From: Candidatus Heimdallarchaeota archaeon
GTDB taxonomy: Archaea; Asgardarchaeota; Heimdallarchaeia; Hodarchaeales; Hodarchaeaceae
Direction: 5' to 3'
Length of the DNA stretch: 47,384 nucleotides
Assembly (NCBI GenBank): GCA_020353515.1
Contig: CP070695.1
Span: 1-47,384, forward strand
A program made the position numbers and the translations under genes. The notes under the pieces were generated by a model. It worked only from the letters and a program-made list of their open reading frames with translations. It had not been told where the DNA came from and did not search any database. This document shows positions 24,518 to 32,731 of this stretch, one piece after another; the first letter of the stretch is position 1, and every line of letters begins with the position of its first letter.

Positions 24518-25825
24518 TTACCAGGGGCCATTTTTTGGGAATTGTGGATCCCAGTCACTTGGTATACTGCCAGTAGCATACATTGTCAGGTTGAGATTTT
24601 CGAAACACTTATTTTTTACAGTTTGAATATCTTCTACAGAGACTTTTGAGATGTTTTCTAAGAAATCTGCCACGGAGAGAGGGTGACGGAATTTAATGTA
24701 TTTTTGTAAAAGGTCAATACCATAATTAGTAGGATCTTCGATTTCGGAAGTATATGAGCCTAAGGTTTCCTCTTTCAAATCGTTAACAGTTTGAGGAGTA
24801 ATTTCAAGATCATGAACATGAACTAGTAGATCCATGACTTTGTGAAAGACATTTTTTGTTTCTTTTGGCGGACTTATGAAAAAGATACCACTTATTGAGA
24901 TATCGAAAAGCGCTTCGAATCCAAAACGACACACGCTTGCTATTCCTTTACTAGTTATTTCCCGGTATAATAATGAAGTTCGAGAATTCCCTATAAATGT
25001 GTTTAGTAACAATAATGGATAGAAATCTGATGAATTGATGCCTGGGGTAGCCCAAGATAAAGCAACATAAGTGAGAGGTTTATCGAGTTTCTTACTCGAA
25101 TAAGAGATACTATTCTTACTACTCTTCTCTGGAGTAACTCTTGGAGGAAAAATAGGATGAGGTCGTGGTTCGGAGATTGCCTCGTTAAAAATTGAAGTTA
25201 GATATTGCTTTTCTCCTTCCAAATCAAAACCACCAACTAGAGTTACAACCGCATTATCAAGAGAATAATACTGTGTGATATAATCAGTCATCATATTTAG
25301 GGTAATTGCTCCCACCGATTCAGGAGTTCCGAGAATATTATGTTCTAATGCAGTTCCTGAGAATTGTTTTTGCCGAACCGTATAATTTGTATCAAATTCT
25401 GGCATATCTGCATATAATTGGATCTCCTGTAGTATAACTTGTTTCTCAGCTTTAAATTCTTCTGGATTAAGGACGTCATTGACCAATAGATCTTTCCAAA
25501 TCTCAGCTGCATGACGTAAATTGCGTGTTGGAACCTTTGCATAGTAAACTGTGTGATCATAGCTAGTAAATGCATTTAAATCTGCACCTAGACGCGTAAA
25601 TGCCTCGTTCACTTGTTTGGCTGTTTTTGTAGGTGTTCCTTTGAAAAACATGTGTTCTAAGAAGTGACTGATACCATCATTTGACCCAGATCCAAACCCT
25701 TTTTCATACATACTTCCAGCATGGAAACCCACCGCAAATAAAGCTGTTTTCCCTCCTGGAATGGAAACTAGTTGTAATTTCAGATTGTTGTCCAATGTTA
25801 CTAATTCAGATTGCTCATTATTCAT
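24518..25825 (-). CDS. M16B zinc metallopeptidase, catalytic subunit
   Basis: GISHFLEHMFFKGT (HxxEH), LNAFTSYDHTVY, EKQVILQEI. Confidence 0.93.
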   Translation of the reverse strand: MNNEQSELVTLDNNLKLQLVSIPGGKTALFAVGFHAGSMYEKGFGSGSNDGISHFLEHMFFKGTPTKTAKQVNEAFTRLGADLNAFTSYDHTVYYAKVPTRNLRHAAEIWKDLLVNDVLNPEEFKAEKQVILQEIQLYADMPEFDTNYTVRQKQFSGTALEHNILGTPESVGAITLNMMTDYITQYYSLDNAVVTLVGGFDLEGEKQYLTSIFNEAISEPRPHPIFPPRVTPEKSSKNSISYSSKKLDKPLTYVALSWATPGINSSDFYPLLLLNTFIGNSRTSLLYREITSKGIASVCRFGFEALFDISISGIFFISPPKETKNVFHKVMDLLVHVHDLEITPQTVNDLKEETLGSYTSEIEDPTNYGIDLLQKYIKFRHPLSVADFLENISKVSVEDIQTVKNKCFENLNLTMYATGSIPSDWDPQFPKNGPW

Positions 25826-25834
25826 TAGAATACC

Positions 25835-27088
25835 TCAGGACACATTGTAAGTCTTACTTGTCCAGTTTTCCTCAATCTTACTAGAATCAATATTTCCAGA
25901 AATAGCTAAGCTGAAATTTTCTGGTCGTAGGAGAGTTGTCTTCCACCAAGAGTGGAGCTCTTTACGAGTTACCCCCTGTATTTCCTCATACCCTGATTCG
26001 ATCTGAGGTGAAAGTCCATGAACTTTTCGGTTAATAATTTTGGATGCAGTCTGTCGGGAATCGTCAAAAGCTAGGTCTAATTGACCTAACATGAAATCAC
26101 GTGTTGTATCATATTCTTCAAGTGAAATTTCTTCTTTACCCATATCAGTAAGTATCTCAACTAATGAATCAATTGCCTCCTCCGTTCGCTTTGGAGAGGT
26201 TTCCATAAAGTAACGTTGAATCAACATATTATCGAAGAGTTTTAGCGTCGCTCCAGCAATGTAGCCAAACGCTTTTTGGTCACGCAGGATTGCAAACATT
26301 CTTGACCCAAAGGATTCCCCTAAAAGTGCACTTGAAAACCGTGCTAATCCGATTAAACTTGGTTGCAACTCGATAGTAATGTTAATACACAGGTAAACAC
26401 TTCCATCCTCCTTCATTGGCCTAGAGATTAGATGATTTGGAGGAGTAACTCTTTGTGGAAAAGATTGAGATTTTTGAACTTTAGTCTCTAGGGTGTTGGA
26501 GAATTCTGAAAATTTTTGATTGATTTTTTTTTGGAGAGAGTCTGATATCGCTCCAACGGTAAACCCCCAGGGCTGGACTAATAATTCTTGATGAGTTTTT
26601 TGGAGATCATCTTTTGTGAGTTGGTTTAAGGAATCTGGTGTTCCAATTTGAGGGCGACCAAGTGGATGGGTCTCTCCAAAAGCAGCTTTATCCGCATCAA
26701 ATAACAACATTCTTCGTACTGGATTGGATTGAACCTGGTGAAAGATTTGTATTAAATTCTGTTTTTCTATAAGGATGTGGTTCTCATCGAGAGTGGGAAG
26801 TGAAATCATTTCACAAAGGAGATCTAGAGTTCGTACAGCGAATTTTGGTTGAATTTGAGCACCGATGATAGAGAAATCTTTTTCTGTTGCCGAAAATAAC
26901 GTTCCACCAGTTCCATCAATCATTCTGGCGATTTCATTTTCATTATGTTGTTTAGTCCCTCGTGCCATTGTTTGTAATAGAACTTGTGTGGATCCAGCAA
27001 GAGTGTCATGAGAAGCTCCATGATGAGTTACTATTCCAAGACATATGGTACGCAAATTAGGATACGGACGAAACACTGTTGAGAACAT
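25835..27088 (-). CDS. M16B peptidase, non-catalytic partner subunit
   Basis: HxxEH is replaced by QVLLQ (GSTQVLLQTMARGT). HPLGRPQIG and SRMFAILRDQKAFGY (R/Y substrate pair) are retained. SD AGGAG upstream. Confidence 0.85.
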   Translation of the reverse strand: MFSTVFRPYPNLRTICLGIVTHHGASHDTLAGSTQVLLQTMARGTKQHNENEIARMIDGTGGTLFSATEKDFSIIGAQIQPKFAVRTLDLLCEMISLPTLDENHILIEKQNLIQIFHQVQSNPVRRMLLFDADKAAFGETHPLGRPQIGTPDSLNQLTKDDLQKTHQELLVQPWGFTVGAISDSLQKKINQKFSEFSNTLETKVQKSQSFPQRVTPPNHLISRPMKEDGSVYLCINITIELQPSLIGLARFSSALLGESFGSRMFAILRDQKAFGYIAGATLKLFDNMLIQRYFMETSPKRTEEAIDSLVEILTDMGKEEISLEEYDTTRDFMLGQLDLAFDDSRQTASKIINRKVHGLSPQIESGYEEIQGVTRKELHSWWKTTLLRPENFSLAISGNIDSSKIEENWTSKTYNVS

Positions 27089-28843: not shown

Positions 28844-29230
28844 TTAACTCTTCTGTACATTCTTTTCCTTTCTTAGTTTAATAATTTCATCTTGAATTTC
28901 TTTGATTAATTGATTATAAGGACAGAGGAGGCATAAATCGATATTCCTTATTTCCTCAGCGTCATTAAGGTTGAAAAGGGTTCCCTGGTCAATTATTTTA
29001 GCTAAACCTTGCGGAATAAAGACAATTCCTTCTTGAATCAATCTAAAAATCTCCCTGAGAATATTTTCCTTCTGTTTAAGTGTTCGGATCTCAAGGAGGT
29101 TGAGTAAATATCCTAAGTTTTGTGTTTCAGTATCTTTAAATGACAAAAGAATGAGGGCACGATCAGTTAATTGAGCTCTATCGTCATCATTGATTCCTAT
29201 TTCTGTTAATAAGTTCTTCTTTGGTTTCAT
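28844..29230 (-). CDS. Small winged-helix-like protein, paralogue of 29730..30197
   Basis: QLTDRALILLSFKDTETQNL..ILREIFRLIQEGIVFIPQGL..IDQG.LF..IDLCLL.PY aligns nearly residue for residue with the paralogue. Confidence 0.8.
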   Translation of the reverse strand: MKPKKNLLTEIGINDDDRAQLTDRALILLSFKDTETQNLGYLLNLLEIRTLKQKENILREIFRLIQEGIVFIPQGLAKIIDQGTLFNLNDAEEIRNIDLCLLCPYNQLIKEIQDEIIKLRKEKNVQKS

Positions 29231-29267
29231 TGACCATCGAACCTTTAATAATATGAAACAAACTCCG

Positions 29268-29705
29268 TTAAATACTTTGATTTAGCCTTGGTAAGTATAA
29301 CTGTAGCAGTCTTTTAAGTAATGAATTCTCATCGAGACCTAAAGCTGGAATCACATTGGGTTTGATTCGAGATAGGATATCAGTAATCGAAGAGTCCTCT
29401 GGGAAATTTAGCCTCTTTTTTATGGTTGTGATTTCCCAATATATTTCGTTAAGCTGAGTAAAATTTTCAATGTGAAAATTAAAGGCTTTCCGAATCTCTT
29501 CGAGACTATCGAAAAGGTTGACGAGATCTTCAATAGGGGTGTGAGGGGGCAAATTTAATGCGGATTGCATATGCTTGATGCAATGCCATGTCGCAATTAA
29601 GGCATGCTCAGAGGAACCATTTGCTAGTTTCAAATATTTTTTTAGTTCTTTAAGCTCCTGTTGTCTCTTCTCTTCCTCTGATGAAGAATCTTCATAGCTC
29701 ATCAT
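29268..29705 (-). CDS. Hypothetical helical protein with a weak internal repeat
   Basis: 'ALNLPPHTPIEDLVNLF' versus 'RLNFPEDSSITDILSRI'. It is embedded in the operon. Confidence 0.7.
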   Translation of the reverse strand: MMSYEDSSSEEEKRQQELKELKKYLKLANGSSEHALIATWHCIKHMQSALNLPPHTPIEDLVNLFDSLEEIRKAFNFHIENFTQLNEIYWEITTIKKRLNFPEDSSITDILSRIKPNVIPALGLDENSLLKRLLQLYLPRLNQSI

Positions 29706-29729
29706 TATAATGCGTCCTAATATAGATCT

Positions 29730-30197
29730 TCATATTTCCTGACTTTTATTCGTCTTATTAGTCTGTAATTGTACTATATCATTCTGAATTTCTTTGATCA
29801 AGTCTTCATATGGACGTAGGAGGCATATATCAATATCTTCAGCCTCAATAGAGTTGTTATTGGTGTCAAACAGGGAACCTTGATCGATTAGCAGAGGAAG
29901 CCCTCTAGGAACATAGATTATCCCCTCCCGAATCAGTCGATAGATCTCTTGTAAAATATTCCTTTTCTCTACCAATGTACGAATTCCAAGGACATTCAAA
30001 ACATACCTCAAATTCTGAGTTGAAGTATCCTTAAAGGATAGTAATAAAAGAGCACGATCTGCTAATTGGTTTGCTAGACGATCCTCATTTATTCTTTCAT
30101 CCTTTGCTTTTTCGGAGAGAAAATTTGTGTCCAATACAAGATCATGATTTTTTTCTTTTGACTCTTGCTTTCGAACATAAACAATTTCTGAGAACAT
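29730..30197 (-). CDS. Small winged-helix-like protein, paralogue of 28844..29230
   Basis: QLADRALLLLSFKDTSTQNL..ILQEIYRLIREGIIYVPRGL..IDQGSLF..IDICLLRPY. SD GGAGG overlaps the end of the upstream gene. Confidence 0.8.
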   Translation of the reverse strand: MFSEIVYVRKQESKEKNHDLVLDTNFLSEKAKDERINEDRLANQLADRALLLLSFKDTSTQNLRYVLNVLGIRTLVEKRNILQEIYRLIREGIIYVPRGLPLLIDQGSLFDTNNNSIEAEDIDICLLRPYEDLIKEIQNDIVQLQTNKTNKSQEI

Positions 30198-30198
30198 G

Positions 30199-30477
30199 TT
30201 AAAAACCTCCAGTAAGGGTATAACGAGAACTATCTGTTGGATCTTGGATTATCTGTAATTTCTCATGGGAAAAATATTCGATCAAGTCGAGAAAATACGT
30301 GAGGAGTTTTCTAAGCTCTGAATCTGTGAACTTGTTTCCTTCTTTCATTTGAAGAGAACACAGCTTATTTTGAAGCTCAATTGAAGAAAAGAGATTCGTT
30401 GACATGAATAGTAATTGGAAAATTTGATCTAACGACTTTTTGATTCCAAATTGTTCCGTAACTTGCACTTTGTCCAA
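30199..30477 (-). CDS. Small hypothetical protein, possibly winged helix; first gene of the operon
   Basis: 92 aa, with its stop 1 nt from the next start. The pattern is helix-helix-helix then 'LQIIQD..SRYTL' hairpin. The TTG start is uncertain. Confidence 0.6.
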   Translation of the reverse strand: MDKVQVTEQFGIKKSLDQIFQLLFMSTNLFSSIELQNKLCSLQMKEGNKFTDSELRKLLTYFLDLIEYFSHEKLQIIQDPTDSSRYTLTGGF

Positions 30478-30482
30478 CGTCC

Positions 30483-30583
30483 GTGTGTTTTTTGATAACT
30501 ACACTTCTGAGTCAGAAATGAAAAACACACTTTGATATAACAAAAAGATATTCGAAAGTGACACAACTTGGAAAAATGTGTCA
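30483..30583 (-). promoter_or_regulatory. Operon promoter region: TATA-like TTATAT (30535-30540), upstream palindrome TGACACA-N11-TGTGTCA (30559-30583), palindrome TTCTGA-G-TCAGAA (30505-30517) and 10-bp IR GTGTGTTTTT/AAAAACACAC (30483-30492/30521-30530)
   Basis: The repeats were read directly from the sequence. The promoter assignment is inferred from archaeal TATA spacing. Confidence 0.5.
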
Positions 30584-30997
30584 GTAATACATTATGATAA
30601 TCTAGTAGAAACTAATAAAAAAACAACAAAGAGAAATTAATAAACTCACTCCTTAAATAGGGGTATAAATGGTTGAGATATTCGAATTATATAAAGCTAA
30701 AATTTTGAGCTAATTATAGATTCGGGGGATAGAGAGGGCCATCAAAAAGCTCTGTATTATCCTGGGAAGATTGGGAAAATACAGATTAATCAAACGATTG
30801 CATAATGGATTCTCATAGATTGATTCTAGGGTTATTTTAGAATATTTCCTTCTCGTTGGAGGCATCTTTGCTAATATATTAATTTGATTAGAGACTGATC
30901 TAACCTCTTGCTATAGAAAAGGTTCTAGCTGCAGGTTTTTGCAGTTGAACAATAAGAACCTTTCTTACGCCTGCATTTGATTCAATTCTTTTGAATT

Positions 30998-31150
30998 CTA
31001 GTCTATTAATGCGCCGTTTGGTCCACCTAAAGCTGCAGTTCCTAGTGAGGTTGCTGCTAGGTAGAGTAATATCAGGAATAACCATGGAATAAATTTCAAC
31101 AGCATTAATTCAACGTCTATTCTTTTTTCACGATTTCTAACTTTTCTCAT
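30998..31150 (-). CDS. Unannotated 50-aa signal-peptide-like small protein MRKVRNREKRIDVELMLLKFIPWLFLILLYLAATSLGTAALGGPNGALID
   Basis: ATG at 31150, TAG at 30998-31000, SD-like AGGTGTGT at 31159-31166. Basic N-region, ~20-aa hydrophobic core, small-residue c-region and short polar tail. Alternative ATG at 31105. Confidence 0.72.
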   Translation of the reverse strand: MRKVRNREKRIDVELMLLKFIPWLFLILLYLAATSLGTAALGGPNGALID

Positions 31151-31207
31151 TGTTTTTTACACACCTAATCTTTTTATTCGGTTTCTTTTATCCAGATTTT
31201 AACAATT

Positions 31208-31264
31208 TGAGTATTTATTTTCTTGAATACTCATTCGAATATTTTGTCTAGACAGGTTTATAAA
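31208..31264. promoter_or_regulatory. Divergent promoter region: IR TGAGTATT-N10-AATACTCA (31208-31233), palindrome TGTCTAGACA (31245-31254), TATA box TTTATAAA (31257-31264)
   Basis: Read directly. The TATA box ends about 27 nt before the regulator ATG, consistent with a leaderless transcript. Confidence 0.55.
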
Positions 31265-31291: not shown

Positions 31292-32731
31292 ATGCCTCTC
31301 CCACAACAAAATTCCTTAATACTGGACAATTTCCGACAAAAACCCGAAGAGTATGAAATAGAGGAATTTGTACTTGATTTTCTCAATATTTGGATGTACA
31401 TCCATGAAAAAGCAGAGGATTGTTCACTAGAAGATACTTTGGAGTTAACTAAGCAATTATTAAATTCTCACATCATACCTTTCTTTACTAAATTCGAGGG
31501 TAATGAAAGTCTTGAGTTAAATGAGAGCTGGCTTAAGACTTATTCATCTATCGTTCTAAAATGGAAGAAAAGGGCAAGTTACTTATTTCCATTGAAACTA
31601 GTTACATATGAGATTTGTTATCATGATAAAAACCTTTTCGAGTTTTTTCTACAAAAATTACTTACAAAAGAGATTAAAGGAGAAAAAGAATCCTTATTCG
31701 AGTTTATTTTCCCTGTTTTAACGAATTTCACTGTCCCTCTTGATGATATGTATATTTCATTTCTAAAAGCTTTTCAGAGCTTAGAAAGGCATAATTCTAC
31801 ATATTATAAGGATCCGACTCAAAATGATTTCGCAAAGCTTTTGGAAGTATCCCCAAGAACTGTTTTACGACGAATGAATGTAATCCGCCTATTACAAATG
31901 GTCAGTGCTTCTCATTTTCTAGATATGGGTCAGCTTGGATATGAAACGACCTTATATGTGCATTCAAATCCTTTCCCAGAAAAATTCGAGAGATATTTAC
32001 TCCTCTCAACGGATTTGACAGTGGGAAATTTTAGTATTGTTCAGATCCCCTTCAAAAAGGCAAAAAAACTGTTATCTTTAGAAACTGACTTGGAATTATT
32101 AACTTCTCAATCAATGACAACAAGAATTTCTTCTTGGAATCTAACTGGTTTATCACCTGGAGAAGTCACTTGGAGGAGTCCTCCCTCATTTCTCCATGGT
32201 GAAGCTAATATTCCTCTAATTTCTCCCAGTCCTGATGTTCATTTCTCTCTTAAACCATCTTTTGATCTTTTTCGACCACTTACTCCTGCTGATATTAAAA
32301 TCCTTGATTTTCTTACCATTAAGGGAAGTTTCACAAGTATTAAACAATTGGGTGATTCAATTCAAGTTTCAGCTCCTGAAGTTTCAAAAAGGCTCCAGGA
32401 ATATGGAAATGATAATTTATTAGTAAAAGCGAATCACTACTACAACATCGGTTTAGATTTAACAATTTTCCTCTTTATCTCTGATGAAGATCGTTCTATT
32501 TCATGGGTTCAACATTTTCTTAGTTTCCCGAAATGTGATATTTATTATCAAAGCGACGAATCTCCACACTATTATTTTGGTTTTCTCAAACTGCCTAATT
32601 ATTGGATTAAAGCTTTTGCACGTAAGATTGATTTGATTAAAAAGGATTATGGTGTTAAAATATACTATAAAATTGCGAGTTCTGTTGACTATGCAAAATG
32701 GGGCATAGAGCTTAGTGAAACTTACTTTTAA
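31292..32731 (+). CDS. Transcriptional regulator: helical N-domain plus two tandem (wHTH + Lrp/AsnC-like) modules
   Basis: HTH1 'PTQNDFAKLLEVSPRTVLRRMN..LDMGQLGY' and HTH2 'LTPADIKILDFL..SIKQLGDSIQVSAPEVSKRLQEY..YNIGL', each followed by an alpha/beta segment. Confidence 0.78.
   Translation: MPLPQQNSLILDNFRQKPEEYEIEEFVLDFLNIWMYIHEKAEDCSLEDTLELTKQLLNSHIIPFFTKFEGNESLELNESWLKTYSSIVLKWKKRASYLFPLKLVTYEICYHDKNLFEFFLQKLLTKEIKGEKESLFEFIFPVLTNFTVPLDDMYISFLKAFQSLERHNSTYYKDPTQNDFAKLLEVSPRTVLRRMNVIRLLQMVSASHFLDMGQLGYETTLYVHSNPFPEKFERYLLLSTDLTVGNFSIVQIPFKKAKKLLSLETDLELLTSQSMTTRISSWNLTGLSPGEVTWRSPPSFLHGEANIPLISPSPDVHFSLKPSFDLFRPLTPADIKILDFLTIKGSFTSIKQLGDSIQVSAPEVSKRLQEYGNDNLLVKANHYYNIGLDLTIFLFISDEDRSISWVQHFLSFPKCDIYYQSDESPHYYFGFLKLPNYWIKAFARKIDLIKKDYGVKIYYKIASSVDYAKWGIELSETYF

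Follow-up and report, generated by a model that had tools for sequence, protein, structure and literature searches.

A conserved 50-residue protein and a divergent Lrp/AsnC-type regulator look like an undescribed signalling pair in an Asgard archaeal genus

The locus studied here raises the question of whether a 50-codon open reading frame (ORF) of an Asgard archaeon is a gene at all and, if it is, what a protein so short and so hydrophobic might do. The ORF lies in the window, the whole stretch of 47,384 nucleotides that was analysed, which covers the initial 47 kb of a genome of 4.94 Mb assembled as one contig; the names of the sources of the close relatives point to the Hodarchaeales/Heimdallarchaeia. 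A preliminary description made from the letters of the window had presented the ORF as hidden and as almost entirely signal peptide, preceded by a Shine-Dalgarno-like motif and without modification enzymes next to it, and had offered a pheromone, a RiPP-like core, a type I toxin or a membrane micro-regulator as plausible roles. The pairing with a tandem Lrp/AsnC-type regulator, which is reported below, did not figure in that description.

A short gene found in one genus

The ORF and the motif in front of it are located as follows.

30998..31150, minus strand: the 50 codons of the small protein plus the stop, ATG-initiated and conserved in frame
31159..31166, minus strand: Shine-Dalgarno-like motif AGGTGTGT, identical in seven orthologues

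Both elements were found as first described; the ORF lies on the minus strand, starts with ATG and gives a translation identical to the one first written. The ORF sits in a gap of 814 bp between a 92-aa gene (30199..30477, minus strand) and a 479-aa gene, which is divergently oriented and starts 141 nt from the small ORF.

The preliminary description had let the status of the ORF hinge on the conservation of its frame in related genomes, on the dN/dS of orthologous small ORFs and on whether longer homologues exist, and all three spoke for a gene. By six-frame search, a stop-free homologous frame was present in 20 of the 21 genomes of the same genus, and 19 genomes from outside the genus yielded no convincing homologue. 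When a profile was run against 301 genomes of the phylum, the matches beyond the genus were two marginal ones only (E 2e-4 and 8.5e-4), both of which fall within long ORFs. Among the genomes searched, the small-protein family appears to be confined to a single genus of the Hodarchaeales (Asgard archaea).

Every one of the 27 distinct homologues collected from the fetched loci is 49–53 aa long and ATG-initiated. A GGTG lies upstream in 18 of these and a purine-rich xGTGA-like motif in the remainder, at 6–12 nt before the ATG (11 nt from GGTG to ATG at this locus). Pairwise comparison of seven orthologues gave dN/dS values of 0.07–0.52, typically ~0.2, at dS values of 0.35–1.2, a range indicative of purifying selection. 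When 1.84 billion representative proteins were searched with a profile, 17 clusters were recovered, all of 46–53 aa bar one 68-aa call, the start of which is probably mis-set.

The gene is hidden in the sense that it carries no functional annotation, but not to gene callers, which, like NCBI, list its relatives under the label “hypothetical protein”. Pfam and NCBIfam hold no family for the small protein, and a feature search of the ESM Atlas gave sub-threshold matches only (0.81). Two ORFs that overlap the gene (30900..31085 on the minus strand and 30991..31092 on the plus strand) are conserved solely where they overlap it, and the DNA just downstream is essentially unconserved in an alignment of six orthologous loci.

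On this comparative evidence, we regard the ORF as a genuine gene under purifying selection. That it is the 5′ stump of a longer secreted-protein gene was ruled out, because the relatives found are all 46–68 aa long and no longer homologue occurs among the 1.84 billion proteins. An ORF that is short, hydrophobic, set in AT-rich DNA and without a Pfam or NCBIfam match could be a product of chance or such a leftover 5′ end, but this is hardly credible for a sequence with 41 distinct relatives of 46–53 aa (one of 68) that share start, stop, Shine-Dalgarno sequence and motifs, with a dN/dS of ~0.2 at dS values of up to 1.2 and with unconserved flanking DNA.

A constrained head and hydrophobic segment followed by a variable octapeptide

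The anatomy of the small protein was read from an alignment of 41 non-identical family sequences, in which the following parts were distinguished.

31094..31150, minus strand: basic head, residues 1–19, with R5 and R7 invariant (omega 0.17)
31031..31093, minus strand: hydrophobic segment, residues 20–40, with a K-L-L-P motif at its start and a small-x-small end (omega 0.11)
31001..31024, minus strand: C-terminal octapeptide, residues 43–50 (GPNGALID here), eight residues long from G43 onwards in 41/41 sequences

The n/h/c-like layout of the preliminary description was thereby recovered, with small residues following the hydrophobic core. M1, R5, R7 and P22 are invariant in 41/41 sequences, K19 is kept in 39/41, and L21, F25 and L28 are each kept in 34/41; P22, F25 and L28/29 share one helix face. 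The charged head is 14–19 residues long and holds 5–7 K/R together with 2–3 acidic residues, while the hydrophobic segment measures 17–21 residues, with a mean Kyte-Doolittle value of 2.4 over the best 19-residue window. On average, 5.6 K+R lie on the N-terminal side of this segment and 0.3 on its C-terminal side, an asymmetry which, by the positive-inside rule, suggests an N-in/C-out orientation.

A small-x-small site closes the segment, position 37 being G/A/S/T in 37/41 sequences and position 39 being A/G/S in 38/41. The pattern would fit the −3 and −1 positions of a signal peptidase site and, equally, small-xxx-small helix packing. Beyond the hydrophobic segment comes an Ala/Gly/Ser spacer whose length varies by four residues and to which the indels of the alignment are confined. 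The octapeptide itself is gap-free in 41/41 sequences and follows the pattern G, P/G/A, four variable residues, a hydrophobic residue and D/E, with G43 in 37/41 and the terminal D/E in 34/41. Octapeptides differ between the paralogues of one genome.

The view of the protein as almost entirely signal peptide found no support in this analysis. Among orthologues, the head and the hydrophobic segment had omega values of 0.17 and 0.11, respectively, compared with 0.59 for the whole tail and 0.37 for its last five residues, so that the supposed signal is the most constrained region. As an in-genome control, the N-termini of ~15 Opp-type solute-binding proteins of the same genome were inspected; these secreted proteins have n-regions of 3–8 residues and h-regions of ~15–20 residues. 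By this comparison, the hydrophobic stretch of the small protein appears ordinary in length for one of the organism's cleavable signals, whereas its long, sequence-conserved head is unlike theirs. A mere signal peptide is a poor description of a sequence in which R5, R7 and P22 are invariant in all 41 members and the head runs to 14–19 aa.

The known signal types were compared in turn. Sec class I signals usually have an n-region of under ~10 residues, and an h-region of 17–21 residues is long by textbook values. The small protein departs from this class in its 14–19-residue n-region and agrees with it in its small residues at −3 and −1 (37/41 and 38/41). A Tat signal, which has a consecutive R-R in an S/T-R-R-x-F-L-K motif directly in front of the h-region, was rejected, as the invariant R5 and R7 form an R-x-R at least 12 residues before the hydrophobic core. 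A class III (type IV pilin-like) signal, the prepilin peptidase site of which has G/A after K/R just ahead of the hydrophobic segment, was rejected as well, since the residues after K19 are L/M/I/F, L/I and P in turn, with no G/A there in 41/41 sequences.

An archaeal signal peptidase I gene is present in the genome (TIGR02228); PF00717 proved unsuitable for detecting this enzyme, having matched none of the archaeal control genomes. The genome also encodes the ~15 Opp-type peptide-binding proteins used above as controls. Together, these genes are permissive for a reading in which a peptide is exported and taken up.

The divergent regulator and the DNA between the two genes

The gene that faces the small gene encodes a protein of composite structure.

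31292..32731, plus strand: 479-aa partner with an N-terminal helical domain (residues 1–167) and two Lrp/AsnC-type HTH+RAM modules (AlphaFold2 pLDDT 89)

In the AlphaFold2 model, the HTH+RAM modules occupy residues 177–282 and 332–461. A Foldseek search with this model gave NirDL (4ch7, E 5e-9) as the best PDB match and then many Lrp/AsnC regulators, with probabilities of 0.96–1.00 for the Lrp/AsnC structures. The match to an HTH_AsnC-type Pfam family lies beneath the gathering cut-off, and relatives of the partner are labelled “DNA-binding Lrp family transcriptional regulator” by JGI. Judging from the predicted structure, the partner is a tandem Lrp/AsnC-fold protein; the RAM domains of such proteins bind amino acids and other small ligands. 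As in NirDL/AhbAB, which belong to the Lrp/AsnC (FFRP) proteins, two HTH + RAM (beta-alpha-beta) modules are joined in one chain. Unlike NirDL/AhbAB, the partner has an additional N-terminal helical domain of 167 residues, and its family is genus-restricted and multi-copy, being present in 21/21 genomes of the genus and in 0/19 outside it. Modelled alone, the N-terminal domain reached a pLDDT of 85, and a fold search with it gave no clear match (best Z 4.4), AimR appearing merely at Z 3.4 among unrelated helical proteins.

Among 26 close copies of the regulator in the fetched loci, 21 have a small gene 111–163 nt away on the opposite strand, and the five without one all lie in tandem arrays. 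The arrays at G020:C234 and G001:C14 hold 4–5 regulator copies with one small gene only, and one regulator copy of the tandem arrays carries an internal TAG.

The same divergent pairing is shown by a second regulator subfamily that is 23–26% identical to the first. In this genome, the distant pair consists of a small gene at 1724222–1724374 (minus strand) beside a regulator at 1724577–1725947 (plus strand), and pairs of this subfamily occur in at least seven other genomes. The distant small protein keeps the K-L-R-x-R head and the K-M/L-I/L-P helix start and has a Pro-rich tail. In this genome, its gene starts with TTG and is preceded by a GAGGTGA motif.

Because the small gene is almost always head-to-head with an Lrp-type regulator, it looks like one half of an undescribed archaeal signalling pair.

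Downstream, the genes that follow the 21 small-gene copies vary and have no enzyme in common. The small gene is considered monocistronic because these genes differ between copies, and the statement that no modification enzymes adjoin it holds.

Two further analyses bear on the pairing. Pairwise distances between small proteins co-vary with those between regulators (Spearman rho 0.40–0.52, the observed value being reached in 0–1 of 999 permutations), as would be expected of any co-inherited neighbours. When the head, the membrane segment and the tail were set separately against the three regulator domains in a mirror test, all combinations gave rho values of 0.40–0.52; because they correlate equally, the region of contact is not localised by this test.

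Complex prediction, for which custom alignments were used, gave a median score of 0.55 for the regulator with the full-length small protein (runs of 0.66, 0.55 and 0.48), where the best of three controls reached 0.02. Of 80 solved complexes, 58 pass the mark applied, as do 2 of 110 mismatched pairs; with a score of 0.60 or less, it is passed by only 7 of those complexes and by both of the mismatches. At least 77% of the contacts agree between the runs, and the partner pLDDT is 61. The prediction weakly favours binding of the small protein by the regulator.

In the DNA between and beside the two genes, the following features were recognized, to none of which a strand is assigned.

31209..31232: palindrome or stem-loop, probably in the 5′ leader of the small gene, with a hairpin in each of seven orthologues
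31233..31254: candidate promoter/operator motif ATTCGAATAT followed by the palindrome TGTCTAGACA, conserved in six orthologues
31257..31264: symmetric, putative TATA-like box TTTATAAA, ~28 nt before the regulator ATG
30721..30765: conserved block of ~40 nt, from the alignment of six orthologous loci

The hairpin at 31209–31232 differs in sequence in each orthologue, with RNAfold z values of −1.7 to −4.6, and its consensus fold, calculated from a MAFFT alignment, is weak (−3.5 kcal/mol). It may be a structure of the 5′ leader or a co-evolving operator. A motif related to the one at 31233–31254, consisting of TCTAGAGAAA, 3–4 nt and TCCGGATA, was seen by eye, uncounted, in most of the 21 paralogous intergenic regions, as was, likewise by eye and uncounted, a TTTA(T/A)AA box at the equivalent place in most of them. 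The sequence ATATTCGAA has three copies in the 814-bp gap, four in the window and 101 in the 4.94 Mb of the genome. Copies of ATATTCGAA(T) are found at 30546–30556 before the 92-aa operon, at 30676–30687 in the middle of the gap and at 31233–31242 between the small gene and the regulator.

Being symmetric, the TTTATAAA box could serve both directions, and the intergenic features as a whole would fit a shared divergent promoter under the control of the regulator.

The block at 30721–30765 sits in the otherwise unconserved gap of ~520–570 nt that separates the small gene from the 92-aa gene. Its conservation is explained by no ORF or Rfam match, and neither the Rfam nor the tRNA scan had a match anywhere in the window.

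Possible roles of the small protein

Two of the four roles first proposed, the pheromone-like pre-peptide and the membrane micro-regulator, are still live. We give a probability of about 40% to the reading in which the ORF encodes the pre-peptide of a signalling cassette and the divergent tandem Lrp/AsnC-type regulator is its cognate partner. According to this reading, the peptide would be inserted N-in/C-out, its basic head (residues 1–19) staying in the cytoplasm, its 17–21-residue hydrophobic segment spanning the membrane and the Ala/Gly/Ser spacer with the small-x-small site lying beyond, which would place an octapeptide of fixed length and paralogue-specific sequence outside the cell. Signal peptidase or another protease would most likely free the C-terminal 8–11 residues, and the freed peptide would be the signal that bears the specificity. 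The neighbouring regulator might then sense this peptide, either directly after uptake or indirectly, bind the shared intergenic operator and control both the peptide gene and itself.

The pre-peptide reading explains the paralogue-specific octapeptide of fixed length and the small-x-small site, as well as the presence of a partner of a ligand-binding type and of several pairs per genome. Against it, the 14–19-aa head and the membrane segment are the most conserved parts of the protein, which is unusual for a mere export signal, and the proposed signal appears to be the least constrained part among orthologues (omega of 0.59 for the tail). The regulator, as modelled, does not belong to the TPR (RRNPP) type, nor do we know of any Lrp/AsnC protein that binds a peptide. 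Moreover, no dedicated exporter, protease or importer was found in the module (that is, among the genes downstream of the 21 copies), and five regulator copies are without a small gene.

These points bring a second explanation close to the first, although we hold it to be somewhat improbable in itself: the small protein could be a single-pass N-in/C-out micro-protein that remains anchored and whose cytoplasmic head binds, tethers, sequesters or co-regulates the Lrp regulator. The head might be freed by intramembrane proteolysis, and the octapeptide would then be an outside sensor or bait and not a diffusible signal.

Such a role would place the strongest constraint where it is observed, on the head and the membrane segment (omega of 0.17 and 0.11 as against 0.59), with R5, R7 and P22 invariant, K19 nearly so, and P22, F25 and L28/29 on one face of the helix. 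It would also suit the strong hydropathy (mean 2.4), the marked charge asymmetry (5.6 vs 0.3 K+R) and an n-region that is 2–3 times longer than those of the genome's own signal peptides. The K-L-R-x-R ... K-M/L-I/L-P motif of the head is kept in the distant subfamily, where the tail is different, and the complex prediction made with the full-length chain (median 0.55 vs 0.02 for the control) weakly agrees with binding. A head that is common to the paralogues, however, leaves unexplained why nearly every regulator paralogue has a small gene of its own, just as anchoring leaves unexplained that the last eight residues are free of gaps and yet variable in their middle positions; cleavage would, besides, be compatible with the small-x-small site and with the length of the hydrophobic segment.

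It is unlikely that the small protein is a plain regulated target, with an activity of its own at the membrane (in membrane stress, as a pore or toxin-like peptide, or as a subunit of a membrane complex) and neither binding to the regulator nor signalling through it. Genes controlled by Lrp/AsnC regulators are commonly divergent from the gene of their regulator, the intergenic region holds conserved operator-like motifs, and the small gene is monocistronic with variable genes downstream, all of which this explanation would accommodate. Yet the pairing is kept down to 23% regulator identity and through many duplications, beyond what a generic target would show, and the complex prediction is positive, though weak.

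The remaining proposals of the preliminary description fared worse. The small protein is a hydrophobic peptide of under ~60 aa, as type I toxins are, but that class fits poorly, since a type I toxin should come with an antisense RNA and not, as nearly every copy here has, a protein regulator beside it. A RiPP precursor lacks support, because no enzyme is shared downstream of the 21 copies and a pair of M16 genes occurs at the primary locus only.

To return to the pre-peptide reading, the layout of the locus resembles that of the Sec-dependent RRNPP cassettes of Bacillota and their phages (PapR-PlcR, Phr-Rap, NprX-NprR and AimP-AimR). RRNPP pre-peptides have 40–50 aa, a basic N-terminus, a hydrophobic core and the active peptide at or near the extreme C-terminus; their genes adjoin that of a cytoplasmic HTH receptor, and many paralogous pairs with different peptides exist. 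Here too, the small ORF adjoins a regulator gene and the pair is conserved (21/26 copies and the distant subfamily). The RRNPP receptors, however, contain TPR repeats, whereas the candidate receptor here combines Lrp/AsnC HTH+RAM modules with a new helical domain; the n-region is long and conserved in sequence, the host is an archaeon, and cleavage, export and uptake are putative.

The Rgg/SHP systems of streptococci, in which the gene of a small hydrophobic peptide is divergent from that of a cytoplasmic HTH receptor and the pheromone is made up of the last residues of that peptide, share with this locus the divergence of a small hydrophobic peptide gene from an HTH regulator. They differ in that SHPs have ~20–35 aa, are processed by the intramembrane protease Eep and exported by PptAB, and act on the TPR-like Rgg; no counterparts of Eep, PptAB or a TPR-like receptor were identified at this locus. 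Because its receptor would be a tandem Lrp/AsnC protein, the locus is not a member of RRNPP or of Rgg/SHP.

For a membrane-anchored regulator, the nearest comparison is with the small single-pass membrane regulators of bacteria, such as MgrB, which acts on PhoQ. These proteins of ~50 aa have a single helix in the membrane, an N-terminus that is basic and cytoplasmic and a short tail outside, and they bind a larger regulatory protein. The small protein is like them in its size, its single predicted helix, its basic head and its short tail. The partner here is a soluble DNA-binding protein and theirs are membrane sensor kinases, and there is no sequence relationship.

Signalling by peptide pheromones is familiar from Bacillota and the phages that infect them, and in the full-text literature searched we found neither this module nor any archaeal peptide pheromone system described. 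The locus could conceivably hold the first cassette for peptide-based cell–cell signalling in Archaea, with an octapeptide sensed by a tandem Lrp/AsnC receptor instead of a TPR protein and with up to six orthogonal channels per genome, but so far-reaching a claim is doubtful. If true, it would place archaeal peptide signalling in the Asgard lineage closest to eukaryotes, and the pair would represent a new type of signalling receptor, in which Lrp/AsnC RAM domains read a peptide. Alternatively, the pair would represent a new class of membrane micro-proteins that control a transcription factor. On either reading, one component is a peptide small enough to be synthesized and the other a protein that is soluble, which makes the question directly testable in organisms that are very hard to approach genetically. 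The case also illustrates that comparative genomics can by itself validate genes of 50 codons in Asgard genomes.

The limits of the module were drawn from the genes around it. Two adjacent M16-family peptidase genes (24518–27088, each with Peptidase_M16 and M16_C domains) lie 4 kb away; as parts of the module they were rejected, being syntenic at the primary locus only (G011 and G021) and absent beside the extra copies. Elsewhere in the assembly, the archaeal SSU rRNA model RF01959 gave no match in the 4.94-Mb genome and matched all 14 control genomes; the SSU rRNA may be interrupted in, or missing from, the assembly. Closer to the small gene, on its downstream side, lies a group of short genes.

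28844..30477, minus strand: four small genes of 92, 155, 145 and 128 aa, often, not always, found near small/regulator pairs

The 155- and 128-aa proteins are paralogues with ~60% identity over their core. None of the four has a family in Pfam or NCBIfam, and a feature search of the ESM Atlas with the 155-aa protein gave a sub-threshold match only (0.88). Of the 21 genomes with fetched loci, 14, this one among them, have homologues of the 92-aa and 155/128-aa proteins beside the pair. Since these genes are missing beside other pairs, they were ruled out as components that the module requires. Pairs made up of a 92-aa and a 155/128-aa gene recur, sometimes in 2–3 copies, near regulator copies in other genomes.
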